Part shown: piece by piece, positions 1,419 through 41,107 of the stretch
Position numbering within the stretch: position 1 is the stretch's first letter
Layout of the letters: each line of letters begins with the position of its first letter
From: a virus
Lineage: Duplodnaviria > Heunggongvirae > Uroviricota > Caudoviricetes
Reading direction: 5' to 3' (one strand)
IMG/VR virus record: IMGVR_UViG_2579778784_000007
Span: 1 to 43,367 of that record
Length of the DNA stretch: 43,367 nucleotides
Program-made: the position numbers and the translations under genes
The notes under the pieces: model-generated
Told to the model about the DNA's origin: nothing
Database searches by the model: none
The model's input: the letters and a program-made list of their open reading frames with translations, nothing else

Positions 1419-2489
1419 TTATTTGATTTCAATTTTGTCCCACTCCCTGCCTCTGTCATCACGATACTGTGATGCCATGGTGTCCGACTTATGCCCGAGA
1501 AGATGTTGAGCAAACTTATCGCTTATCTGCTTCTCATAGAGTCTTGCAGACAAACTGCGCAACTCGTGAAAGGTAGGCGGATCCCCTTCGAAGGAAAGAC
1601 CTGATGCTTTTCGTGCGCGCATAAAATACCTTGATACTGTGCCGGATGAAAGCGGTTCACGACGAGTAGATGCAATTATGGTTTCTCCGCCAAGAATCTC
1701 TTTGCATTTATCAAGTGTTTCCTTCATTGATATCCCGAGAGCATCAACATGCAATGTTGTAGGGATGGCAATTTTTACGCCCGTTTTGCTTTGCTCGACA
1801 TAAAGATATCCATCTACGATATCAGACCACTTCATTTCGCATAAATCACCAACTCGCTGCCCGGTAACAACAGCCAGTTCCATTGCAAGTCTTAGCCAAC
1901 ATGGTGATGATTCTGCTGCTTGATAAATTTTCAGGTATTCGTCAGCCGTAAGCCTTGATCTCCTTACCTCTGATTTTGCTGCGCGAGTGGCAGCGACCGG
2001 GTTTGTTGTTATATGGCCTTCAGCTATTGCCTCTCGGAATGCATCGCTCAGTGTTGATCTGATTAACTTGGCTGATGCCGCCTTGCCCTCGTCTATGTAT
2101 CCATTGAGCATTGCCGCAATTTCTTTTGTGGTGATGTCTTCAAGTGGAGCATCAGGCAGACCCCTCCTTATTGCTTTAATTTTGCTCATGTAATTTATGA
2201 GTGTCTTCTGCTTGATTCCTCTGCTGGCGAGTATTTTTTCGTAGCGATCAAGCCATGAATGTAACGTAACAGAATTATCACTGTTGATTCTTGCTGTCAG
2301 AGGCTTGTGTTTGTGTCCTGAGAATAACTCAATGTTTGCCTGTATTGCTTCAGTAATTGCTATCCTCCTGTCTCTGCCTAATCCGAACTCTTTACCCGTC
2401 CTTGGGTCCCTGTAGCAGTAATATCCATTGTTTCTTATATAAAGGTTAGGGGGTAAATCCCGGCGCTCATGACTTCGCCTTCTTCCCAT
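1419..2489 (-). CDS. int: Integrase (tyrosine recombinase), lambda Int
   Basis: 356-aa translation MGRRRSHERRDLPPNLYIRNNGYYCYRDPRTGKEF... matches my recollection of lambda Int essentially along its whole length; adjacent to attL P' arm. Confidence 0.97.
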   Translation of the reverse strand: MGRRRSHERRDLPPNLYIRNNGYYCYRDPRTGKEFGLGRDRRIAITEAIQANIELFSGHKHKPLTARINSDNSVTLHSWLDRYEKILASRGIKQKTLINYMSKIKAIRRGLPDAPLEDITTKEIAAMLNGYIDEGKAASAKLIRSTLSDAFREAIAEGHITTNPVAATRAAKSEVRRSRLTADEYLKIYQAAESSPCWLRLAMELAVVTGQRVGDLCEMKWSDIVDGYLYVEQSKTGVKIAIPTTLHVDALGISMKETLDKCKEILGGETIIASTRREPLSSGTVSRYFMRARKASGLSFEGDPPTFHELRSLSARLYEKQISDKFAQHLLGHKSDTMASQYRDDRGREWDKIEIK

Positions 2490-2685
2490 TTCTGATCCTC
2501 TTCAAAAGGCTACCTGTTATTGGTCGATTTAAGTCAACCTTTACCGCTGATTCGTGGAACAGATACTCTCTTCCATCCTTAACCGGAGGAGGGAATATCC
2601 TGCATTCGCGTACCCATCGACGAACTGTTTCAAGGCTTCTTGGGCGTCGCTGGCGTGCGTTCCACTCCTGAAGTGTCAAGTACAT
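2467..2685 (-). CDS. xis: Excisionase, lambda Xis
   Basis: 72-aa MYLTLQEWNARQRRPRSLETVRRWVRECRIFPPPVKDGREYLFHESAVKVDLNRP...; overlaps int start as in lambda. Confidence 0.95.
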   Translation of the reverse strand: MYLTLQEWNARQRRPRSLETVRRWVRECRIFPPPVKDGREYLFHESAVKVDLNRPITGSLLKRIRNGKKAKS

Positions 2686-2710
2686 CGCAAAGTCTCCGCA
2701 ATTACACGCA

Positions 2711-2734
2711 AGAAAAAACCGCCATCAGGCGGCT
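2711..2734 (-). terminator. Intrinsic terminator between the small ORF and xis (lambda tL3-like position)
   Basis: On minus strand: GCCGCC-tgat-GGCGG stem-loop followed by TTTTTTCTT, directly after the stop of the 55-aa ORF. Confidence 0.5.
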
Positions 2735-2892
2735 TGGTGTTCTTTCAGTTCTTCAATTCGAATATTGGTTACGTCTGCATGCGCTATCTGCGCCCATATC
2801 ATCCAGTGGTCATAGCAGTCATTGATGTTCTCTGCTTCGATAACTCTGTTGAATGGTTCTCCATTCCATGCACCTGTGACTCGGAAGTGCAT
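2725..2892 (-). CDS. Small hypothetical protein (55 aa), lambda orf55-like position
   Basis: Not in the supplied ORF track (<60 aa). ATG at 2892 preceded by GGAG; translation MHFRVTGAWNGEPFNRVIEAENINDCYDHWMIWAQIAHADVTNIRIEELKEHQAA; followed by terminator. Confidence 0.45.
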   Translation of the reverse strand: MHFRVTGAWNGEPFNRVIEAENINDCYDHWMIWAQIAHADVTNIRIEELKEHQAA

Positions 2893-3010
2893 TTATCATC
2901 TCCATAAAACAAAACCCGCCGTAGCGAGTTCAGATAAAAGAAATCCCCGCGAATGCGAGGATTGTTATTCATTGCTGATATTCACCCTTATCGCGAACAC
3001 CTTTACCGGT

Positions 3011-3253
3011 TTATCTCCTTTGCATGGCACGTAATTTTTTCAGATGGTTCTCCTGCTCTGTTTCAGCCAGGATCTGGTGATATTCTCTGTGATCAATGTG
3101 TTCGAATAAATTATTGAATTTTCTGATGCACACTCTTCCAGGATAGCCATCCATCCTCTTGAAGAACACTGAGTGATCAGTACTACGAATGATTTTTACT
3201 GGATAGCCAGCGCTATCGGTGTATATCTGACCACGTTGAATCAGAGAGAACAT
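3011..3253 (-). CDS. Hypothetical early-left protein
   Basis: 80-aa ORF in the leftward early operon; no recognisable motif. Confidence 0.5.
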   Translation of the reverse strand: MFSLIQRGQIYTDSAGYPVKIIRSTDHSVFFKRMDGYPGRVCIRKFNNLFEHIDHREYHQILAETEQENHLKKLRAMQRR

Positions 3254-3314: not shown

Positions 3315-4265
3315 TCATTTCACCTCCTGCGGCGGTTCCGGTAGCGGCATCCAGTGAGTTGCTTGCTCAATACCATTACCCTGCTTAATCGTTGCATCTC
3401 CGCGCCGAAAGGTGCTTCCGGTATAGCGTGCGGAGCATATTAGCGGTTCAACCAGAGAGCTATCGAAATTCACTGAAATAAGCACGTTCTGGCCCTTTTC
3501 AGGCATTCGCTCACTACAGCTTATCCAACCATCCGGAGTTACCGGAGAGTTGCCGGGTTCTTTAATGTGCAAGCGAGGCTCACCATCTTTTGGCTCAGGC
3601 CACTGGCGCTCCATGTTGATCTTCAATTTATCTTCCATAGCAGCGGTAATTTCAGCATCGCTGATGCCAGCACGGCGCTGTGCATCCCACAACAGAAACT
3701 GCATATCAGCCCACTCGCTAAGATCGTCTGGTTCGGCTGCGGCTTCCAGTGCCTCTTTTGAGAGATGTTTCAGCGGGCCAACTGGACCAACACAGCCAAA
3801 CGTCTTATCTGACCATTCAGCATGGCGCTGCCGGATTAAATTGCGCAATTGAAGCGATGATCCGTTCTCCTCTGACAACTCTTCATGATTACTTGCAGGT
3901 TCGACACCCTGAAGCATGGCGGCGCGGCAGGCATTCCAGCCTCTCACCTCTGCAATAGCGGCAACAGCATCGACCGCGTACATTTTAAGAGGGTTGGGCA
4001 TTGGTTTTTCTTCAGGTACTACTGGCATTGGAGGGGCGGCGTATACTTCAATAATCCCATTATCAATAGGCCATTCTCCATCCTTGAGGTAGTCACTTGT
4101 GCCGTCAACTTGCTGTTTTGCAATGTGGAATGCACCTATTGGTTTTGCTTCCAGTGATGCCAGTGCAATTTCATAAGCACGGCGCTCAATATTGTCTCGA
4201 ACGTCCAGGCTGCCTATGCGCTCTTTGATTTCTTTAATCAGTTCTTTGTCGGTGAAAGTTGTCAT
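3315..4265 (-). CDS. Hypothetical protein with C-terminal DUF551-like domain
   Basis: 316-aa ORF; C-terminal segment ...WISCSERMPEKGQNVLI...ATHWMPLPEPP resembles the DUF551 domain common in enterobacterial prophage early regions; GAGGA SD 7 nt upstream. Confidence 0.6.
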   Translation of the reverse strand: MTTFTDKELIKEIKERIGSLDVRDNIERRAYEIALASLEAKPIGAFHIAKQQVDGTSDYLKDGEWPIDNGIIEVYAAPPMPVVPEEKPMPNPLKMYAVDAVAAIAEVRGWNACRAAMLQGVEPASNHEELSEENGSSLQLRNLIRQRHAEWSDKTFGCVGPVGPLKHLSKEALEAAAEPDDLSEWADMQFLLWDAQRRAGISDAEITAAMEDKLKINMERQWPEPKDGEPRLHIKEPGNSPVTPDGWISCSERMPEKGQNVLISVNFDSSLVEPLICSARYTGSTFRRGDATIKQGNGIEQATHWMPLPEPPQEVK

Positions 4266-8707: not shown

Positions 8708-9034
8708 TCAAATAAGTGGTTTGCTGCCTAATTTCATTTTCTGGCGACCAACACAAGTCACACCCATTTCACTGCGTGGCTTGCTGTACCATGTGCGCTG
8801 ATTCTTGCGCTCAATACGTTGCAGGTTGCTTTCAATCTGTTCGTGGTATTCAGCCAGCACCGTGAGGTCTATCGGATTCAGTGCGCTTTCTACTCGTGAT
8901 TTCGGTTTGCGATTCAGCGAGAGAATAGGGCGGTTAACTGGTTTTGCGCTTACCCCAACCAACAGGGGATTTGCTGCTTTCCATTGAGCCTGTTTCTCTG
9001 CGCGACGTTCGCGGCGGCGTGTTTGTGCATCCAT
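8708..9034 (-). CDS. N: Antitermination protein N
   Basis: MDAQTRRRERRAEKQAQWKAANPLLVGVSAKPVNRPILSLNRKPKSRVESALNPIDLTVLAEYH... matches lambda N including the arginine-rich boxB-binding motif; AGGAG SD. Confidence 0.93.
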   Translation of the reverse strand: MDAQTRRRERRAEKQAQWKAANPLLVGVSAKPVNRPILSLNRKPKSRVESALNPIDLTVLAEYHEQIESNLQRIERKNQRTWYSKPRSEMGVTCVGRQKMKLGSKPLI

Positions 9035-9436: not shown

Positions 9437-10483
9437 TCACTCTGGTTCGCTGGGGAATATATTTATCAATTGCCCTGTTGAAATGTGCCCATTTTCTACA
9501 ACCTCTAGATATGAAATTTCAACAGTTGATTCTTTGGCTACAGCATTCAAAAACTCAAGAAGCTCATCAGTAGATGTTATGTCGGCTGAGGTTTTTATGG
9601 TGAAAGATTCACCATTTGAAACCCTTATGACGTCAATATTTATGTCCTGATTTGTTTCTCCCGAGCGACGAACGCCCGTGACATAAAAGTTATCTCTTCT
9701 AGTTTCCTTTTTTCGATCAATTGATTGTCTTTGGTTTAAGGTATTCAACTGTTCTCTATTTACCACTCTCTGACCAATTGTTACCCTCTCAACTGACGAG
9801 TCTTGAGCAAGCTTTTTAAGCAACTTGCTTTTACCATCCTCGCCGTGAGCCAGAACCTCTCTGCTAATGTTTGTTTGACCGCTAATCAACAACTTGAGCA
9901 CATTGTCTTGTGCTTCGTTTACCGCTTTGGTGCTTTTTTCCACCAATTGCACCTGAGAATCTTGGTCATGTCGCTGTGTTTCGTAGTACTCATTGATCCA
10001 CTTATAGCCTACCGTGCTGGCAGCTAAGACGATAGCGGCGACGGCGCATAGTGCTTGCCTTCCTGTCATTTTGCCTATCGCTTGAGTAAACACTGTCACC
10101 ACTCCGTTTACAATCGGATCTGAGTCACCATCCGCTTGGCTTGAGCCTTCGCTTATTCGGTAGACAATATCCAGCAAACCTTTCTCTGCATCTTTTAGCT
10201 TCTGCCGATTATGAGTGCTGTGACTGACTACCGTAAATGCTTTTTGTATTTCATGCGTAAGCTCTGCCATACCAAAAAGCATTGACGCAGTCAATGAAGA
10301 ATTATATCTATTTGGATCGCCTTTTACATTAATATTGATCTTTGGCCATCCACTGAAAACTACGTTAGGGAATGTGAAGTCGCTTGAGTCGATGTCCTTC
10401 CTTCCGAGCATTTCTGTTACAAAAGATACAAAGTCGTCTTCTGACTTGATAACATATTGCGCAGGTTGATCAATCGCTGACAT
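9437..10483 (-). CDS. Unknown 348-aa protein in the rexA/rexB position downstream of cI (candidate prophage defence/exclusion gene)
   Basis: Starts 25 nt after the cI stop with AAGGA SD, same strand, followed by a strong terminator; central hydrophobic stretch ALCAVAAIVLAASTVGYKWI (about residues 143..162); appears AT-rich; no recognisable motif. Confidence 0.75.
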   Translation of the reverse strand: MSAIDQPAQYVIKSEDDFVSFVTEMLGRKDIDSSDFTFPNVVFSGWPKININVKGDPNRYNSSLTASMLFGMAELTHEIQKAFTVVSHSTHNRQKLKDAEKGLLDIVYRISEGSSQADGDSDPIVNGVVTVFTQAIGKMTGRQALCAVAAIVLAASTVGYKWINEYYETQRHDQDSQVQLVEKSTKAVNEAQDNVLKLLISGQTNISREVLAHGEDGKSKLLKKLAQDSSVERVTIGQRVVNREQLNTLNQRQSIDRKKETRRDNFYVTGVRRSGETNQDINIDVIRVSNGESFTIKTSADITSTDELLEFLNAVAKESTVEISYLEVVENGHISTGQLINIFPSEPE

Positions 10484-10508: not shown

Positions 10509-11168
10509 TCACCCAAACGTCTCTTCTGGCCACTGGCTGGCGATAACTTTCCCTACAACGGAACAGCTATCATTGCATGGGATCATTGGATATTGCGGGT
10601 TTAGTGGTTGTAGGAACACCTGACCGCTATCCCTGATCAGTTTCTTGAAGGTAAACTCGTCACCACCAAGTCTGGCTATGCAGAAATCACCTGGCTCAAC
10701 AGCCTGCTCAGGGTCAACGAGAATTAACATCCCGTCAGGAAAGCTTGGCTTGGATCCTGTTGGTGCGGTCATGGAATTACCTTCAACTTCAAGCCAGAAC
10801 GCACAATCACTAGCTTTTTTGGTTGTGCTGACCCATCTCTCCGCATCACCTTTGGTAAAGGTTCTAAGCTCAGGCGAGAACATCCCGGCCTGAACATGAG
10901 AAAAAACAGGGTACTCATATTGTTTTTTAACGGGGGCAGATGAGTATTCGCCAACAGGTGAAAATGTACCGTCGTGGTTGAATGAGACGTTATCAATACC
11001 AAGGTATTTAAACACCACACCAATCTCGTCAAGAGATGGATGACGAGATCCGCGCAACCAGTGACCAATTCCACCCTGCGTCATACCAAGCTCTTCAGCT
11101 AACTTCTCTTGAGTTATGCCGAGCTCTTTCATTCTGGATCTAGCCAGTTCATACCATTTCATTTTCAT
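10509..11168 (-). CDS. cI: cI repressor (hybrid: non-lambda N-terminal HTH domain + lambda-like C-terminal S24 autopeptidase/dimerisation domain)
   Basis: C-terminal ~130 aa ([39 protein letters not shown]...[12 protein letters not shown]...FTFKKLIRD...) nearly match lambda CI as I recall it; the N-terminal ~80 aa are a different HTH_XRE domain. ORF-track start at 11210 is TTG; first ATG is 11168, and a better-spaced ATG lies at 11162. Confidence 0.9.
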
Positions 11169-11224
11169 ACCCTTATTATTACGCTCTGTACTAAAACCAT
11201 CCATGCACAAGATGTATTTTTTGT

Positions 11225-11927: not shown

Positions 11928-12089
11928 ATGACAAAACGTCGTAAGAAATACCAGGAAAAAGAAGAGATTCGACACCCTGATTCACCTGAGGGATTAGTGG
12001 TAGCCGCAGCAAATAACAGGGCGTTCGCAGAGCGCCTTGTTGGTGTTTACAGACTAGCCAAAGCAGGAGTGAAACATGGGCGTCGTTAA
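11928..12089 (+). CDS. Small hypothetical protein (53 aa)
   Basis: Not in ORF track; ATG at 11928 with GGAG SD; basic N-terminus MTKRRKKYQEKEE.... Confidence 0.35.
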   Translation: MTKRRKKYQEKEEIRHPDSPEGLVVAAANNRAFAERLVGVYRLAKAGVKHGRR

Positions 12090-12138
12090 GTTAGCTGATT
12101 ACAGGCATAACCCTGTACAACATCAGGAGGCATCCAGT

Positions 12139-13032
12139 ATGGGGTATGTCTCTATACACCGCCAGTTTATGGACAGCAGGCTCTATAAGGACTCTCAGGC
12201 AGTACATCTTTGGCTTCACTTAATCCTCAAGGCTAATCACGAATCTACTGTCGTCAATACGGATATCGGTCCGATAACTGTTGATCGCGGTCAGATGATA
12301 ACTGGACGCCCGTCGCTGGTCAGAGAAACATTCATCCCCGACAACAAAGTTAGGAGCTTATTACGGACTTTTGAGTCGAAAGGGATGCTTAATATTTGCT
12401 CGATTGGGAAGAAATTTAGCCTGTTTACAATCGTTAAATATGACGATTTTCAGGCAAAAAATTGTCCAACGGTTGTCCAACGGTTGTCCAACGCAAACAC
12501 CAGTAATGGCGCGGCTCTCAGCGGAGATTGTCCAACGGTTGTCCAACGGTTGTCCAACGCAAACACCAGTAATGGCGCGGCTCTCAGCGGAGATTGTCCA
12601 ACGGTTGTCCAACGGTTGTCCATAAACAATAATATAAATAATATCTCTAATACTGACGTATTAGAGAGTGCCACAGCAGACAAAAAGTCTGACAAGAAAA
12701 AACCTTCCGTCAGCTGTCAGGATGTTGTCGATGCTTACCACGAAATCCTTCCTGAAGCGCCAAGAATCCGCGCACTGAATGACAAGCGTAAAAACCAGAT
12801 CCGAACGTTCTGGCGCAAAGCCGGAGTGATAACCCGCCAGCTTGACGGGCATGGGTTCACGATGCAGGACTGGAGAAATTATTTGAGCTACGTTGGCGAA
12901 AATTGCCGATGGATGTTCGAAGAGCGCCCAAACCATCAACGCGGAACCGTCTGGCACAAAAAGGGATTTGATTTCCTGCTTAACGACAATACCTACCTGA
13001 AAGTTCGTGAGGGTGAACACGATGACCGATAA
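12139..13032 (+). CDS. Replication initiator / replisome organiser (O-like, P22 gene 18 type) containing origin iterons
   Basis: Start chosen at ATG 12139 (AGGAGG SD, 8-nt spacing); N-terminal HTH-like domain, an iteron-encoded 22-aa tandem repeat, conserved C-terminal domain; immediately followed by a DnaB-like helicase. Confidence 0.72.
   Translation: MGYVSIHRQFMDSRLYKDSQAVHLWLHLILKANHESTVVNTDIGPITVDRGQMITGRPSLVRETFIPDNKVRSLLRTFESKGMLNICSIGKKFSLFTIVKYDDFQAKNCPTVVQRLSNANTSNGAALSGDCPTVVQRLSNANTSNGAALSGDCPTVVQRLSINNNINNISNTDVLESATADKKSDKKKPSVSCQDVVDAYHEILPEAPRIRALNDKRKNQIRTFWRKAGVITRQLDGHGFTMQDWRNYLSYVGENCRWMFEERPNHQRGTVWHKKGFDFLLNDNTYLKVREGEHDDR
12472..12625 (+). repeat. ori: Origin-like iteron array: 11-bp unit TTGTCCAACGG in a 66-bp higher-order tandem repeat, followed by an AT-rich stretch
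   Basis: Read directly: three 11-bp units + 33-bp spacer, repeated twice and partially a third time; adjacent AT-rich segment 12622..12670; embedded within the initiator gene as in lambda ori. Confidence 0.7.
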
Positions 13033-14458
13033 TTTTTATGCGCCGCCCCATAGCATCGAGGCAGAGCAGGCGGTGATTGGTGGATTGCTTCTGGATGATG
13101 ACAGCAGTGAGCGCGTCCGGAAAGTTCTGGCGATGCTGAAGCCTGATTCATTTTACAGCCGACCACACAAAATCCTTTTCGAAGAAATAACCAGAATGCA
13201 CCGGGAACAAAAGCCAGTAGATGGCCTGACGCTTTTCGATGAACTGGAGCGTAAATCGTTAACGGCGTCTGTTGGCGGTTTTGCTTATATCGCTGAGATC
13301 GCAAAGAACACGCCAAGCGCAGCAAACATCGTTGCCTATGCAATGCAGGTTCGTGAAACCGCAATGGAACGCTACGCCATCAACCGCATGACTGAAGCGA
13401 CGGAATTGCTCTATTCCCGCAACGGAATGACTGCAACGCAGAAGTACGAAGCTATTCAGGCGATTTTCACGCAACTGACAGACCATGCAAAAACCGGATC
13501 GCGTCGCGGCCTTCGCTCATTTGGTGAGGTCATGGAAGACTGGGTTAGCGACCTTGAGAAGCGATTTGACCCGTCAGGCGAACAACGAGGAATGAGCACG
13601 GGGATCCCATCGCTGGACAGGATGCTGTCACCGAAAGGTCTGGTGAAAGGCTCTCTGTTTGTCATTGGCGCTCGCCCTAAGATGGGGAAAACGACGCTAT
13701 ACAGCCAGATGGCAATCAACTGTGCAGTGCATGAGAAAAAGCCTGCTCTGATGTTCAGCCTTGAAATGCCAGGTGACCAGATACTGGAAAAACTGGTAGG
13801 GCAGAAGTCTGGTGTTAACCCGAATATTTTTTACCTTCCGGCGACAAATGACGCTGATGACGGCTATCAGGGTGATTACGATGGTGACTTCAACAGGGCG
13901 ATCGAAACAGCCAATCGCTTGAGTGAAATCGACATGCTTTACATCGACGACACGCCGGGATTATCTCTGGCTCAAATCGTCAGCGAAAGCCGTCGAATCA
14001 AGCGAGAAAAAGGATGTGTTGGCATGATTCTGGTCGATTACCTGACACTAATGACTGCTGAGAAGGCCGATCGCAACGACCTTGCTTACGGCATGATCAC
14101 CAAAGGACTGAAGAACCTTGCCAAAGAGCTTGATTGCGTTGTTGTGCTTCTGACACAGCTTAACCGCGCACTGGAAAGCCGAACCAATAAACGCCCATTA
14201 CCAAGTGACTCACGAGATACAGGGCAGATTGAACAGGATTGCGATTATTGGGTGGGGATCCATCGTGAAGGTGCTTTTGATGACAGTGTTCCTCCTGGTG
14301 AAACCGAACTAATCCTTCGTCTCAATCGTCATGGCAATACCGGCACGGTGTATTGCATTCAGGCAAATGGCGCTATTTATGACACAGACCAACAGTCTGC
14401 TGAAATGCGCCGACGTGAACGAGAGGAACCGCAGTCCAAGAAGAAAGGAGGATTCTGA
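13022..14458 (+). CDS. DnaB-family replicative helicase (P22 gene 12 type)
   Basis: 478 aa from ATG 13022; N-terminal DnaB-like domain (IEAEQAVIGGLL), Walker A GARPKMGKTT, Walker B region ILVDYLTLM. Confidence 0.85.
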   Translation: MTDNFYAPPHSIEAEQAVIGGLLLDDDSSERVRKVLAMLKPDSFYSRPHKILFEEITRMHREQKPVDGLTLFDELERKSLTASVGGFAYIAEIAKNTPSAANIVAYAMQVRETAMERYAINRMTEATELLYSRNGMTATQKYEAIQAIFTQLTDHAKTGSRRGLRSFGEVMEDWVSDLEKRFDPSGEQRGMSTGIPSLDRMLSPKGLVKGSLFVIGARPKMGKTTLYSQMAINCAVHEKKPALMFSLEMPGDQILEKLVGQKSGVNPNIFYLPATNDADDGYQGDYDGDFNRAIETANRLSEIDMLYIDDTPGLSLAQIVSESRRIKREKGCVGMILVDYLTLMTAEKADRNDLAYGMITKGLKNLAKELDCVVVLLTQLNRALESRTNKRPLPSDSRDTGQIEQDCDYWVGIHREGAFDDSVPPGETELILRLNRHGNTGTVYCIQANGAIYDTDQQSAEMRRREREEPQSKKKGGF

Positions 14459-14486
14459 TGACCATCTACATCACTGAGCTAATAAC

Positions 14487-14518
14487 AGGCCTGCTGGTAA
14501 TCGCAGGCCTTTTTATTT
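14487..14518 (+). terminator. Intrinsic terminator (lambda tR2-like)
   Basis: AGGCCTGC-tggtaatc-GCAGGCCT followed by TTTTTATTT between the helicase and ninB. Confidence 0.7.
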
Positions 14519-14534
14519 GGGGGAGAGGGAAGTC

Positions 14535-14975
14535 ATGAAAAAACTAACCTTTGAAATTCGATCTCCAGCACATCAGCAAAACGCTATTCACGCAGTACAG
14601 CAAATCCTTCCAGACCCAACCAAACCAATCGTAGTAACCATTCAGGAACGCAACCGCAGCTTAGACCAAAATAGGAAGCTATGGGCCTGCTTAGGTGACG
14701 TCTCTCGTCAGGTTGAATGGCATGGTCGCTGGCTGGATGCAGAAAGCTGGAAGTGTGTGTTTACCGCAGCATTAAAGCAGCAGGACGTTGTTCCTAACCT
14801 TGCCGGGAATGGCTTTGTGGTAATAGGCCAGTCAACCAGCAGGATGCGTGTAAGCGAATTTGCGGAGCTATTAGAGCTTATACAGGCATTCGGTACAGAG
14901 CGTGGCGTTAAGTGGTCAGACGAAGCGCGACTGGCTCTCGAATGGAAAGCGCGATGGGGAGATCGGGCTGCATGA
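14535..14975 (+). CDS. ninB: NinB (Orf-family recombination mediator)
   Basis: 146 aa MKKLTFEIRSPAHQQNAIHAVQQILPDPTKPIVVTIQERNRSLDQNRKLWACLGD... matches lambda NinB. Confidence 0.9.
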   Translation: MKKLTFEIRSPAHQQNAIHAVQQILPDPTKPIVVTIQERNRSLDQNRKLWACLGDVSRQVEWHGRWLDAESWKCVFTAALKQQDVVPNLAGNGFVVIGQSTSRMRVSEFAELLELIQAFGTERGVKWSDEARLALEWKARWGDRAA

Positions 14976-15499
14976 CTATCAAATCAAATACGCCAGCACA
15001 CGACAAGGACTGCTGGCAAACGCCGCTTTGGCTTTTTGATGCACTGGATATTGAGTTTGGATTCTGGCTGGATTCGGCAGCGAGCGACAAAAATGCTCTG
15101 TGCGCTCACTGGCTAACTGAGGCTGACGACGCGCTAAATTCTGAGTGGGTAAGCCACGGTGCAATCTGGAATAACCCACCGTACAGCAATATCAGGCCGT
15201 GGGTGGAAAAAGCCGCTGAGCAGTGTATACAACAGCGACAGACGGTAGTGATGCTTGTGCCAGAGGATATGTCTGTCGGATGGTTCAGCAAGGCTCTGGA
15301 GAGTGTTGACGAAGTTCGCATTATCACTGATGGACGGATTAATTTTATCGAACCATCGACAGGGCTGGAGAAGAAGGGAAACAGCAAAGGCTCCATGCTG
15401 CTGATTTGGCGACCGTTCATCAGTCCTCGACGGATGTTTACTACCGTATCCAAAGCGGCATTGATGGAGATCGGGCAGGGCGTCAGGAGGGCAGCATGA
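14972..15499 (+). CDS. Phage-type DNA N6-adenine methyltransferase (orphan, Dam-like)
   Basis: 175 aa from ATG 14972 (ATGA overlap with ninB stop); catalytic NPPY motif (WNNPPYSN); no adjacent restriction endonuclease gene. Confidence 0.8.
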
Positions 15500-15672
15500 G
15501 ACGACGGCGACGAAGTATCACCGACATCATCTGCGAAAACTGCAAATACCTTCCAACGAAACGCTCCAGAAATAAATCCAAGCCAATCCCAAAAGAATCT
15601 GACGTAAAAACCTTCAACTACACGGCTCACCTGTGGGATATCCGGTGGCTAAGAAATCGTGCGAGGAAATGA
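15496..15672 (+). CDS. Small nin-region protein (NinE/NinD-like, CxxC motif)
   Basis: 58 aa [27 protein letters not shown]...; AGGAGGG SD; ATGA coupling. Exact nin assignment (ninD vs ninE) uncertain from memory. Confidence 0.6.
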
Positions 15673-15674
15673 CA

Positions 15675-16076
15675 ATGCTTTTAATTCAACCTGGATTTGG
15701 ACTTAGCATCAAAAAAGGCCACATGTTTGGCGAGAAAGAGTCACAACGAAAAATGGTGTCTATCCGGTTGCCATTTATCAGTATTTATTGGCTAAACAGG
15801 GAGGCAACAAATTATTGGTATACATGCGCCAGAGCAGCATTTAACGACCCTGACTGGTTTGTGAAAAACCACCACGCAGTTCGTCAGGCAAAGAGAAAGG
15901 CCAACATGACATACATGAAGGCGTATCAAAAAGCATGGAAAGAACACCGCGATCGATACCAACAAGACATGGAAAAGCTTGAATCAGAAAACATGGAATT
16001 AAGACGAAAGCTCGGTGAAGCAAAACGAGACATTGATGCTTACAAGCGACTTTTTAATGGTGAAAGCCATGCTTAG
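15675..16076 (+). CDS. Hypothetical nin-region protein
   Basis: ORF 15633..16076; start placed at ATG 15675 (GAGGAA SD, 6-nt spacing); C-terminal coiled-coil-like segment. Confidence 0.45.
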   Translation: MLLIQPGFGLSIKKGHMFGEKESQRKMVSIRLPFISIYWLNREATNYWYTCARAAFNDPDWFVKNHHAVRQAKRKANMTYMKAYQKAWKEHRDRYQQDMEKLESENMELRRKLGEAKRDIDAYKRLFNGESHA

Positions 16077-16245
16077 CCCATCCCAATCCCTTCAATACCA
16101 GAAAGAAAGCGTCGAGCGAGCTTTAACGTGCGCTAACTGCGGTCAGAAGCTGCATGCGCTGGAAGTTCACGTGTGTGAGCACTGCTGCGCAGAACTGATG
16201 AGCGATCCGAATAGCTCAATGTACGAGGAAGAAGACGATGAGTGA
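16069..16245 (+). CDS. ninF: NinF
   Basis: MLSPSQSLQYQKESVERALTCANCGQKLHALEVHVCEHCCAELMSDPNSS... matches lambda NinF (Cys-rich). Confidence 0.75.
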   Translation: MLSPSQSLQYQKESVERALTCANCGQKLHALEVHVCEHCCAELMSDPNSSMYEEEDDE

Positions 16246-16450
16246 TTACATGAAATGGTATCTCTGCCACCGCTGGTTAATTAAGTTTGCTGTAAAAGAC
16301 TGGATGACAGCGGATGCCAACAAGCTTAAGCAACGAAAGGACTATTACTACGCCAGAATGAAGGAAAACTACTGCTCAATTCGCACTCGCATATTTATTA
16401 AAAAAGACCTTCAGTCAATTCTTCAATTGCGAGGGAAGGTAAATGGCTAA
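16238..16450 (+). CDS. Hypothetical nin-region protein (70 aa)
   Basis: ATGA-coupled to ninF; no recognisable motif. Confidence 0.45.
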   Translation: MSDYMKWYLCHRWLIKFAVKDWMTADANKLKQRKDYYYARMKENYCSIRTRIFIKKDLQSILQLRGKVNG

Positions 16451-16733
16451 CCTACGCAAAGAAGCACGCGGCAGAGAATGCCAGGTACGTATTTACGGCG
16501 TATGCAATGGTAATCCTGAAACTACAGTTCTGGCACATTACCGGATGGCTGGAATTTGCGGAACGGGAATGAAGCCTGACGACCTGATCGGCGCATGGGC
16601 TTGTAGCGCGTGTCACGATGAAATCGACCGACGCACCCATAACCTCGACAACAAAGACGCCAGACTTTACCACCTCGAAGGCGTGATCAGGACGCAGGCG
16701 ATACTGCTGAAGGAGGGGAAGATTAAGTCATGA
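16443..16733 (+). CDS. ybcO: YbcO-like DUF1364 protein (putative nuclease)
   Basis: MANLRKEARGRECQVRIYGVCNGNPETTVLAHYR...CSACHDEIDRR resembles DLP12 YbcO; sits before rusA as in DLP12. Confidence 0.72.
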   Translation: MANLRKEARGRECQVRIYGVCNGNPETTVLAHYRMAGICGTGMKPDDLIGAWACSACHDEIDRRTHNLDNKDARLYHLEGVIRTQAILLKEGKIKS

Positions 16734-38575: not shown

Positions 38576-41059
38576 ATGTTTATTATGCCAGAACAATTAT
38601 ACAACGTAGTTGTTTCACAACCAAGTCAGTTATTTACTTTAGCTCGCTCGTTTAAAGCAAATGCCAATGGCAAAATTTATATCGGTAAAATTGACACTGA
38701 CCCGGTAAATCCAGAAAACCAGATTCAGGTTTATGTAGAGAACGAAGACGGCTCTCACGTTCCTGTTTCGCAACCAATCATCATTAACGCTGCCGGATAT
38801 CCGGTATATAACGGACAGATTGCCAAATTCGTTACCGTGCAAGGCCATTCTATGGCTGTTTATGATGCGTATGGTGCGCAGCAGTTTTATTTTCCCAATG
38901 TGCTGAAGTATGACCCCGATCAGCTACGGCAGCAATTAGAAGATCCAGATGGCGCTAAAAAATATCCTGAGTTGCAGATAGCACGATGGAGAGATTGTGG
39001 AGATGTTAGAGGTTGGGGAGCAAAAATAGATGGGGTAACAGATGATTCAGATGCTTTTATTAAAGCTTTAAACTCTGGAAGGTCGGTTATAACAATTCCT
39101 GAAGGAATATGCATCATCAAGAAGAATATTAACATTCCTGAAGGGTGTTCACTGGTTGGATCTGGCATTGATTATTGGGATACATATAGACCAGCGCCTG
39201 AAAGATTATTAAAAAGTTGGAGTAAAGGAACCCATCTTGTATTTACTGGTGATGGAGAAAAAAACAAATATTTTTTTAACATCTCTAATGAAAGACCGGT
39301 TAAAATTGTTGAAGGGATATCTTGTAAGTTCACTGAGTTTACGAATGAAGATTCTGTAGGTGTTACTCCTGCTACACCAAAAGCCATGAGCGTAGCTGTT
39401 AGTATCAACAGGGCATCACAGTTACGCAATCTGAGAATAATGGTAAGTAAAAATGGTATTGAAGGATACAATAACCCTGATTCTTATTCATTGGGTGATA
39501 ACTGGGATATAGGGTTGCATGTATACGATAGCTGTGATTCAGTTATTGATAACGTACAGATTGTCGGCTATTGGAGGGTAAAAGGACTACTACTGACAGA
39601 AAATGACGGGAGCCTTTCAATGAAGGGAAATCCTGAAAAAACGCACTTTAATAACGTTTATGTACAGTCAGGAATCGCGATAAGGAATAGCCCTCAGATT
39701 GATCTTGTAAGTAATACTGAAAGCTCAGTGACATTTAAACATAAAAAGTCGATGAGAATAACTTCAGTTAAACAGTTTAAAATTGCTGGCAGTGAATCAG
39801 TATATACGTATTCAGATGCATCATTTGATGGAACTAATATCACACTATCTGGTATTTCTCCTGAAATACAAGGTTCAATAAGTGTAATCAGGTTTCCGTC
39901 AATTGGTAATAATTTTAGTGGGACTGTTTTTGAGAATACAGTAGCCACTACTCTTGATCATACATCAGGTAAGCCATCAGAATACTTTGGCCTTCCTGCA
40001 TCCTTTGCATTAGAGATTGATGGTTTCCCTGTTCGTAATTTAAGGCTTGATAAATTCAAAGCTCAAACTACCTTTGATAAAGGAAATTGCATTTTTGGTG
40101 ATTGCCGTGATGTTAAAATCACATCATCTGAGTTTGAAAATGGAATTATGATTGCGTATAACCTGACCGAGACTCAGGGTTATACAGGAAATCTTAGATT
40201 TTTTGCTTCTGATCTTCAGAGCAGCGTTAACACAAGCGAGTTTAAACCAAGAGACGCATTTGTAGACAATAGACAAATAAAAACGGAGTTTACTGATGGT
40301 TCTTTCATTATAAAGAACTGGAGGCCTACAGATACAAAAATACAATGGTCGTCTGGAGTGGATGCTATTGTTCTTAGAGAGTCACCTGACGAACAATCAA
40401 ACGGAAATATTTACGGGTATCACATTGATGGTAAAAGATGGATTAATGTTAGTGGATATAACAAAGATATAAATATTTCATCAAGAAACTTAAGCGTAAA
40501 AAACCATAGTGATGACTCCGCAGTTATTAATATATTCGGCGACTCTGGAAATATTGCCATTAAAGGTAATTTTTCACCAATTGTTGATAACAGCAAATCT
40601 CTTGGTGCACCATCATTTAGATGGGCTCAGATTTATTCTGCATCTGGGACTATAAGCACATCAGATGAAACACTTAAAACAATATATGACATTACTCAGG
40701 CAGAGCGTGATGCTGCGCTGGAAATAAAGGGAATTATATGCAAGTTCAGGTTTAATGAGTCGATTAATTTTAAAGGATTGGAGTTATCAAGGTATCATTT
40801 TGGAGTTGGCGCTCAAACCGTAGGGGATATTCTTAGAAAGCATGGTTTAAACCCTGAGCAATATGCTTTTTGGTGTTACGATGAATGGCCAGACGTATGG
40901 GATGAAGAGGTGATAACTGAAGAGAGCACAGATCCTGATACAGGTGAGAAAATTTATTCTCAATATAAAACAGGAAATATGATTCTTGTAAAAAAAGCAG
41001 GTGGACGCTACGGAATTCGTTATGACGAATTGGCTATGTTTATATTAATGGCAATGTAG
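38576..41059 (+). CDS. Tailspike: P22 gp9-like N-terminal head-binding domain, divergent central receptor-binding domain, C-terminal intramolecular chaperone (S74-like) domain
   Basis: N-terminus [53 protein letters not shown]...[12 protein letters not shown]...VLKYDPDQ aligns with P22 gp9 residues ~7..120; C-terminal ~130 aa resemble the auto-cleaving chaperone domain of endosialidase/K5 lyase/T5 fibre, with an S-x4-K dyad at SDETLK (Ser codon 40661..40663). Confidence 0.88.
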
Positions 41060-41078
41060 TTGCAATAAATGCAGTATA

Positions 41079-41107
41079 TCCCGCATGAAAACTGCGGGAT
41101 TGTTTTT
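41079..41107 (+). terminator. Intrinsic terminator after the tailspike gene
   Basis: TCCCGCA-tgaaaac-TGCGGGA followed by TTGTTTTTA. Confidence 0.6.

Follow-up and report, generated by a model that had tools for sequence, protein, structure and literature searches.

The stretch of DNA considered here (the window) is the whole of IMG/VR record IMGVR_UViG_2579778784_000007, a viral sequence of 43,367 nucleotides that represents a complete lambdoid prophage with a P22/Sf6-type late region and of the non-Shiga-toxin (non-Stx) kind. Its nin region holds, at 14972-15499 on the plus strand, an open reading frame (ORF) of 528 bp for a DNA N6-adenine methyltransferase of 175 amino acids (six-frame ORF list and sequence). 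The gene stands between ninB (14535-14975, plus strand), also called orf, which encodes a recombination mediator (PF05772 NinB, 1.1e-54; ORF list and sequence), and ninE (15496-15672, plus strand; PF05322 NinE, 1.1e-41).

The three genes are joined by overlapping codons. The methyltransferase ATG (14972-14974) shares an ATGA with the ninB stop TGA (14973-14975), and the ninE ATG (15496-15498) shares another with the methyltransferase stop TGA (15497-15499). The coupling by ATGA between ninB and the nin genes that had been noticed in an earlier note on this DNA is therefore found on both sides of the gene. A Shine-Dalgarno-like GGGGAG can be read at 14956-14961 on the plus strand, its last base lying 10 nt 5' of the methyltransferase ATG, and is the putative ribosome-binding site of the gene. 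An in-frame GTG further upstream, at 14912, would allow a version of 195 residues. Since the homologues in the protein database are 175 residues long and begin with MTIKSNTP, the start at 14972 is favoured.

Family, conserved residues and predicted fold

The identification of the gene draws on hidden Markov models (HMMs), identity to described proteins, distribution and fold. The protein matches PF05869, 'DNA N-6-adenine-methyltransferase (Dam)', at 2.3e-65 (219.8 bits against a cut-off of 28.1, profile positions 1-167 of 169) and the NCBIfam equivalog TIGR01712, 'phage N-6-adenine-methyltransferase', at 5e-79 (263.5 bits against a cut-off of 97.05, positions 1-165 of 165). A chance match is excluded by HMM E-values of 2e-65 (Pfam) and 5e-79 (NCBIfam). 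The match to phrog_111, 'DNA methyltransferase', is at 1e-87, and the top PADLOC matches are 'orphan methyltransferase' models. PF05869 is the sole Pfam family at E <= 0.01, and PF02086 (MethyltransfD12) gave no match. As judged by these profiles, the enzyme is a member of the HP1/T1/VT2 Dam family and lies outside the E. coli/T4 Dam family. At the protein level the family occurs in 1950 phage records, including those of T1-like, HP1/HP2 and Vibrio phages.

Two alignments were used for the conserved residues. The first contained 11 sequences, from E. coli, Pectobacterium, Edwardsiella, Providencia, Yersinia, Serratia, Shimwellia and Enterobacter together with HP2 Dam and T1 Dam; the second consisted of 70 close homologues. 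T17-P18, L33-D34, A37 and W66-x-N68-P69-P70-Y71-S72 are invariant among the 11 sequences. N68, P69, P70 and S72 do not vary in either alignment, whereas W66 and Y71, invariant among the 11, reach at least 90% conservation in the larger set. In that set of 70 close homologues D34 and A36 show no variation, and E50 is conserved in at least 90%. The (D/N)PPY catalytic motif IV is intact as W66-N-N68-P69-P70-Y71-S72. Its NPPY (residues 68-71) is encoded at 15173-15184 on the plus strand and directly follows strand beta4 (64-68 in the AlphaFold2 model). The motif I-like LDSAAS (residues 33-38; 15068-15085, plus strand) occupies the end of strand beta1, which spans 31-36 in the model. The core expected for binding of S-adenosylmethionine (SAM) is present as LDxAA after beta1, an acidic E50 after beta2 and a Rossmann-type fold. 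By analogy with the class I methyltransferase topology, SAM would be bound by LDSAAS and the region of E50.

The AlphaFold2 model was built from the 70-sequence alignment and has a mean predicted local distance difference test score (pLDDT) of 87.5 and a predicted template modelling score (pTM) of 0.86. It consists of a single Rossmann-type methyltransferase domain with strands at 31-36, 46-48, 64-68, 92-97 and 114-119, in which D34 closes beta1, E50 comes after beta2 and NPPY directly follows beta4. According to the alignment and the model, the protein is small, with 175 residues in one domain and without a separate target-recognition domain (TRD). The lower-confidence internal stretch is confined to a hairpin region at about residues 121-140, beside the site at which T1 Dam has a 14-residue insertion; this region may contact DNA.

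A search of the PDB by sequence returned noise only (best E 0.24), and a fold search was used for that reason. In the PDB, Foldseek ranks the methyltransferase domains of PCIF1/CAPAM (6irv-6is0) first, with E 4e-5, probability 1.0, TMq 0.55-0.62 and 13-16% identity. They are followed by other N6-adenine enzymes, namely CamA, TrmM, KsgA/DIMT1 and M.BseCI. The structures of E. coli Dam are matched weakly (E 0.02-0.1, TMq 0.29-0.36), and the probability for METTL3-14 does not exceed 0.3. Because the E. coli Dam match is weak and PCIF1/CAPAM and other N6-adenine enzymes come ahead of it, the protein is, as modelled, an N6-adenine methyltransferase core and not a family-level homologue of host Dam. 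PCIF1/CAPAM itself is eukaryotic and methylates the adenosine next to the mRNA cap; its crystallised constructs have about 480 residues and include regions without counterpart in the window protein.

The phage Dam enzymes of T1 (M.EcoT1Dam) and HP1/HP2 belong to the same family as the window protein. They show 33-38% identity to it over the catalytic core, share the TP, LDxxA and NPPYS motifs and are likewise orphan. T1 Dam differs from the window protein by a 45-residue N-terminal extension and by the 14-residue insertion, which precedes the beta-hairpin. Unlike the window gene, the T1 and HP2 Dam genes are not beside ninB. E. coli/T4 Dam (alpha-class, PF02086) shares with the window protein the reported product, N6-methyladenine (m6A) in GATC, as well as the cofactor and a (D/N)PPY motif. 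However, it has about 278 residues and an inserted DNA-recognition domain, compared with 175 residues and no such domain here, and the two are homologous only in the generic methyltransferase core. The label 'Dam' thus denotes an activity and not homology to host Dam. The earlier note had called the gene Dam-like, which is apt for the reported GATC specificity and misleading for the family, the protein not being a classical Dam. Its description of an NPPY-motif N6-adenine methyltransferase is borne out by PF05869, TIGR01712 and the alignment, and none of the catalytic residues, whose loss it had named as grounds for giving up the idea, is lost in the alignments.

Other prophage methyltransferases were considered and set aside. 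M.EcoGV/M.EcoPA8orf6770P is likewise a 'Dam homolog' of a lambdoid prophage and is reported to methylate GATC on over-expression; together with its partner PNB-2 it methylates 16S rRNA, and it corresponds to gp5 of phiPA8 (PMC10810198). The window gene is not this reassigned Stx-prophage enzyme, which is an MT-A70/DPPW protein and a different gene (PMC10810198). The motif here is NPPY, the methyltransferase has no MT-A70 Pfam match, and the scan of early-region ORFs in the window turned up no gene of the M.EcoGV type. The non-specific or single-stranded DNA (ssDNA) methyltransferases M.EcoGII, Hia5 and M.EcoGIX are not relatives either. They belong to different families, Hia5 having DPPY + FxGxG and a divergent TRD, and M.EcoGIX being plasmid-borne.

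The ninB-ninE slot and orphan status

The gene is present at 95-99% nucleotide identity in 244 phage records, including 434, mEp043, mEp213, SfI, Sf101 and many Stx1 and Stx2 converting phages. NinB and NinE flank it in every annotated record among the matches listed. Of the 5426 complete genomes of E. coli, 1562 (~29%) carry it, those of Nissle 1917 and the type strain among them, under the PGAP label 'phage N-6-adenine-methyltransferase'.

Pairwise comparison with lambda delimits the cassette. Positions 14457-14975 of the window are 98.1% identical to lambda 40566-41084, from tR2 through the ninB stop codon. Homology is lost at that stop and returns at 15503, which corresponds to lambda 42097 inside ninE; between lambda 41084 and 42097 the pairwise comparison found no DNA homology. 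The lambda genes in this gap are ninC and ninD. Since the homology ends at the ninB stop and restarts in ninE, both genes are replaced by the cassette. The junctions at the ATGA boundaries are a textbook lambdoid mosaic joint. NinC, a protein of 290 residues from the phosphoadenosine phosphosulfate (PAPS) reductase family, and NinD share with the methyltransferase the slot between ninB and ninE and are unrelated proteins. NinC has no DNA homology to the methyltransferase and belongs to a different Pfam family, and the equivalence is positional only. Lambda-type ninC, at 80% of its length or more, is found in 149 of the 5426 E. coli genomes and in 17 phage records, the figures for the methyltransferase being 1540 genomes and 244 phage records. 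With 1540 genomes against 149, the methyltransferase is the commoner allele of the slot, at about ten times the frequency of lambda-type ninC in E. coli genomes. The suggestion in the earlier note that the enzyme replaces ninC therefore named the correct slot. It missed ninD, and to speak of replacement takes lambda as the reference when the methyltransferase is the more common occupant.

The early-region ORFs, together with three ORFs near the tail end whose function is unknown, were scanned against Pfam, PADLOC and PHROGs for restriction endonucleases, and none was found. Within this scope the absence of a cognate endonuclease, asserted before for the neighbourhood of the gene, holds, and the enzyme is classed as an orphan for this reason. 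The arrangement is not that of a Type II restriction-modification system, the neighbours being NinB and NinE and no restriction-endonuclease or defence model matching any scanned prophage ORF. The only HNH protein is an HNH_3 + AP2 protein at 17987-18499 (plus strand), directly 3' of Q, which PADLOC scores as a homing endonuclease; it has probably been inserted between Q and the lysis genes as a mobile homing endonuclease. A 348-residue ORF at 9437-10483 on the minus strand, between N (8708-9034) and the cI-like repressor gene (10509-11210), matches phrog_6191 (unknown function) only, and neither Pfam nor PADLOC gave a match for it. It occupies the classic 'moron' position, at which genes for exclusion or defence are found in lambdoid prophages.

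Some database entries touch on the same gene. In four of them (P0002, P0005, P0011 and P0084) the methyltransferase is fused to NinE, CII, RusA or Q domains; such fusions probably stem from frameshifts, from mis-assembly or from recombinant joints at the ATGA junctions. In Klebsiella phage PIN1 (PQ803402.1) the coding sequence 2438-3166, of 242 residues, is labelled 'phosphoadenosine phosphosulfate reductase' and is matched by the methyltransferase in tblastn with 28% identity over residues 9-168. A fusion of a NinC-type PAPS reductase with a methyltransferase, or another link between them, which this entry (PIN1_0035) might suggest, was rejected: the product is a stand-alone 242-residue protein with a match to the methyltransferase family and its label is probably wrong.

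Reported specificity and probable role

The protein is identical at 174 of 175 residues to orf32 of VT2-Sakai (NP_050531). The sole difference is E166 here versus A166 there, in the C-terminal helix and outside the conserved core. Orf32 is the sole methyltransferase annotated in VT2-Sakai; orf4 of the same phage is a DUF551 protein and not a methyltransferase. The tie between the named enzyme M.EcoVT2Dam and the nin-region gene is indirect and runs via the annotations of VT2-Sakai and of prophage Phi15 in strain 95NR1. Phi15 has been described as having a single methyltransferase, which is identical to M.EcoVT2Dam, an enzyme 'known to target 5'-GATC-3'' (PMC6602927). Within the Phi15 coordinates taken from that paper, the only intact methyltransferase is the 175-residue gene between NinB and NinE, and M.EcoVT2Dam is equated with the nin-region gene on this ground. 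Phi15 also contains, at 21742-21855, a 114-bp 'site-specific DNA-methyltransferase' pseudogene fragment just 3' of Q, with the tRNAs and stx2 following it; this fragment is what is left of a second methylase cassette in Stx phages.

The window methyltransferase is thus in effect an allele of M.EcoVT2Dam, which is reported to methylate the adenine of GATC, and m6A methylation of GATC by the window protein is predicted from the 174/175 identity. The two also share the 528-bp length, the position between ninB and ninE, the ATGA junctions and the family, and M.EcoVT2Dam is 99% identical to the HK97 homologue. Their carriers differ, M.EcoVT2Dam coming from an Stx2 phage and the present gene from a non-Stx prophage whose late region is of the P22/Sf6 type. 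GATC is also the target cited for the relatives T1 Dam and HP1 Dam. The gene is accordingly already known and very common, and its one-residue variant M.EcoVT2Dam has already been cloned and assigned GATC specificity. With annotated copies in hundreds of phage records and in roughly 29% of the complete genomes of E. coli, it amounts to little as a discovery.

Upstream of ninB, at 14487-14520 on the plus strand, a terminator scan located an intrinsic terminator, a hairpin followed by a T-run (AGGCCTGCTGGTAATCGCAGGCCT then TTTTATTTGG), which is taken to be the equivalent of lambda tR2 on the strength of established lambda biology. In lambda, the genes 3' of tR2 are transcribed from pR only after N antitermination. 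The methyltransferase would belong to the pR operon, 3' of tR2, and would be translationally coupled to ninB and ninE. Since it lies 3' of a conserved tR2, its product would be delayed-early in lytic growth, after N antitermination, and would be scarce in the repressed prophage. The 'dam' clone CM2 of Phi24B (coding sequence 17559-18086, 528 bp), which was obtained by means of an antiserum specific for lysogens, shows 100% identity to NP_050531 of VT2-Sakai, and induction of the prophage significantly alters its expression (PMC3342100).

Taken together, the gene at 14972-15499 probably encodes a functional orphan SAM-dependent DNA N6-adenine methyltransferase that is specific for GATC, is expressed delayed-early and tops up the GATC methylation of replicating phage DNA. 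SAM held at D34 and E50, together with the NPPY loop, would serve for N6 methylation of a flipped adenine in GATC. The virion DNA of lambda and P22 is under-methylated by host Dam (PMC8022706). Phage DNA may replicate faster than host Dam follows, and the phage enzyme would then complete its GATC methylation, which is the most likely biological role. The progeny DNA would be fully m6A-modified and protected both from GATC restriction enzymes that are blocked by m6A and from nicking by MutH; in hosts with little Dam it would stay methylated. In the methylome of an induced lysogen, GATC methylation would have a second, hidden source in this gene.

Several points weigh against assigning such a specificity and role. 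The GATC specificity of M.EcoVT2Dam rests on a secondary citation, and GATC activity is predicted for the enzyme of this prophage from its identity to M.EcoVT2Dam. M.EcoVT2Dam goes back to Radlinska & Bujnicki (2001), and assays of that type rely on over-expression in a dam- host and then on digestion with DpnI/MboI. Over-expression and digestion assays can report off-target activity, as has been argued for a different Stx-phage methyltransferase (PMC10810198). M.Btr190III, a relative of T1 Dam, methylated GATC with substantial off-target activity, and a 4-bp specificity has no explained structural basis in a protein without a recognisable TRD. The nin genes are non-essential. GATC is, moreover, depleted in the prophage, which has 98 sites where base composition predicts 168 and a second-order Markov model 202; a prophage poor in GATC yet encodes a GATC methylase, and its host already has Dam.

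The off-target behaviour raises the question of an active DNA m6A methyltransferase whose specificity is looser than GATC, near-cognate or nearly non-specific, and which would act in general anti-restriction modification. This is unlikely. A 175-residue bare catalytic core without a separate TRD and the off-target activity of M.Btr190III are compatible with it, as is the frequent promiscuity of prophage and plasmid methyltransferases (PMC4659465). However, the near-identical M.EcoVT2Dam is listed as GATC-specific, the literature cites its relatives T1 and HP1 Dam as enzymes of the Dam type, and the family is unrelated to the non-specific Hia5 (DPPY + FxGxG) and M.EcoGII (class beta). It is less probable still that the enzyme naturally acts on RNA or ssDNA, perhaps together with a partner protein, and that methylation of GATC in DNA is an over-expression artefact, as proposed for M.EcoPA8orf6770P/M.EcoGV. 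In that precedent the substrate of a prophage 'Dam homolog' was revised to 16S rRNA (PMC10810198). The closest solved folds are those of PCIF1/CAPAM, an enzyme making m6Am at the mRNA cap, with rRNA and tRNA adenine methyltransferases also among the Foldseek matches, and the gene is tightly coupled in translation to the ssDNA-binding NinB. Against it, the family differs from that of M.EcoGV (NPPY and PF05869 versus DPPW and MT-A70), and the 13-16% identity in Foldseek reflects a common N6-adenine methyltransferase core and not a substrate. The T1 and HP2 homologues, not being beside ninB, give no sign of a conserved partner. A paper of 1987 by Scherzer and co-workers on the T1 DNA methyltransferase announces in its title the 'identification, purification, and characterization' of that enzyme. 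The invariable coupling to a recombination mediator that binds ssDNA and the closeness of the fold to an RNA-cap adenosine methyltransferase also leave a slight chance that the protein is not a stand-alone enzyme of duplex GATC in vivo. It would then act on ssDNA, on DNA of recombination or replication intermediates or on RNA, perhaps with a phage partner, GATC methylation on over-expression being a side activity. In the Orf/NinB papers no functional link between NinB and the methyltransferase is described.

That the enzyme is one half of a restriction-modification system with an unrecognised endonuclease is very improbable. The 348-residue ORF at 9437-10483 would be the obvious candidate, since Pfam and PADLOC are silent on it and its PHROG is of unknown function. 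It lies 4.5 kb away on the other strand, in a separate operon between N and cI, and the genes adjoining the methyltransferase are NinB and NinE in every record among the matches listed from the 244 phage records and 1562 E. coli genomes. An enzyme cutting GATC would, furthermore, kill dam- hosts only and serve no purpose in dam+ E. coli. The reading as an inactive relic or a mis-called ORF has in its favour the dispensability of nin-region genes and the truncated and fused versions in databases, and is effectively refuted by the sequence data. The gene is full-length with all invariant residues present, is conserved at 95-99% nucleotide identity across hundreds of phages and is one residue off an enzyme reported to be active. 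In addition, an expression screen with lysogen-specific antiserum detected the Phi24B protein, which is identical to that enzyme. The reading of the gene as a delayed-early GATC methyltransferase remains the preferred one.

Other features of the prophage

The prophage carries a lambda-type integrase, RecT, N, a cI-like repressor, cII, an O-like initiator, a DnaB-type helicase, the nin region, Q and lysis genes. The segment 9000-21000, from replication to lysis, matches HK629, HK542, mEpX2 and Sf6 in mosaic pieces, each with about half coverage. Downstream of ninE the order is a 135-residue ORF of unknown function, a NinF-like protein, YbcO, RusA and Q. The 135-residue ORF (15669-16076, plus strand) overlaps the ninE stop with its ATG in a further ATGA and matches phrog_1511 (unknown function), with weak Pfam matches of coiled-coil type. 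It is not present in lambda, where ninF directly follows ninE, and homology to lambda restarts after it at 16103, within ninF. At 16443-17092 (plus strand) the putative nuclease YbcO (PF07102) and the Holliday-junction resolvase RusA (PF05866) occupy the place of lambda NinG/Rap and constitute an alternative nin cassette.

The gene for the O-like replication initiator (12076-13032, plus strand) contains, at about 12480-12620, three tandem copies of a unit of ~22 amino acids, CPTVVQRLSNANTSNGAALSGD, which presumably represent the origin iterons within the O gene. The early-left region includes, at 3315-4265 on the minus strand, an ORF of 316 residues with a dATP/dGTP pyrophosphohydrolase domain (PF04447) and DUF551. 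Another tetranucleotide, CTAG, is strongly under-represented in the window, with 14 sites observed and 46-168 expected.

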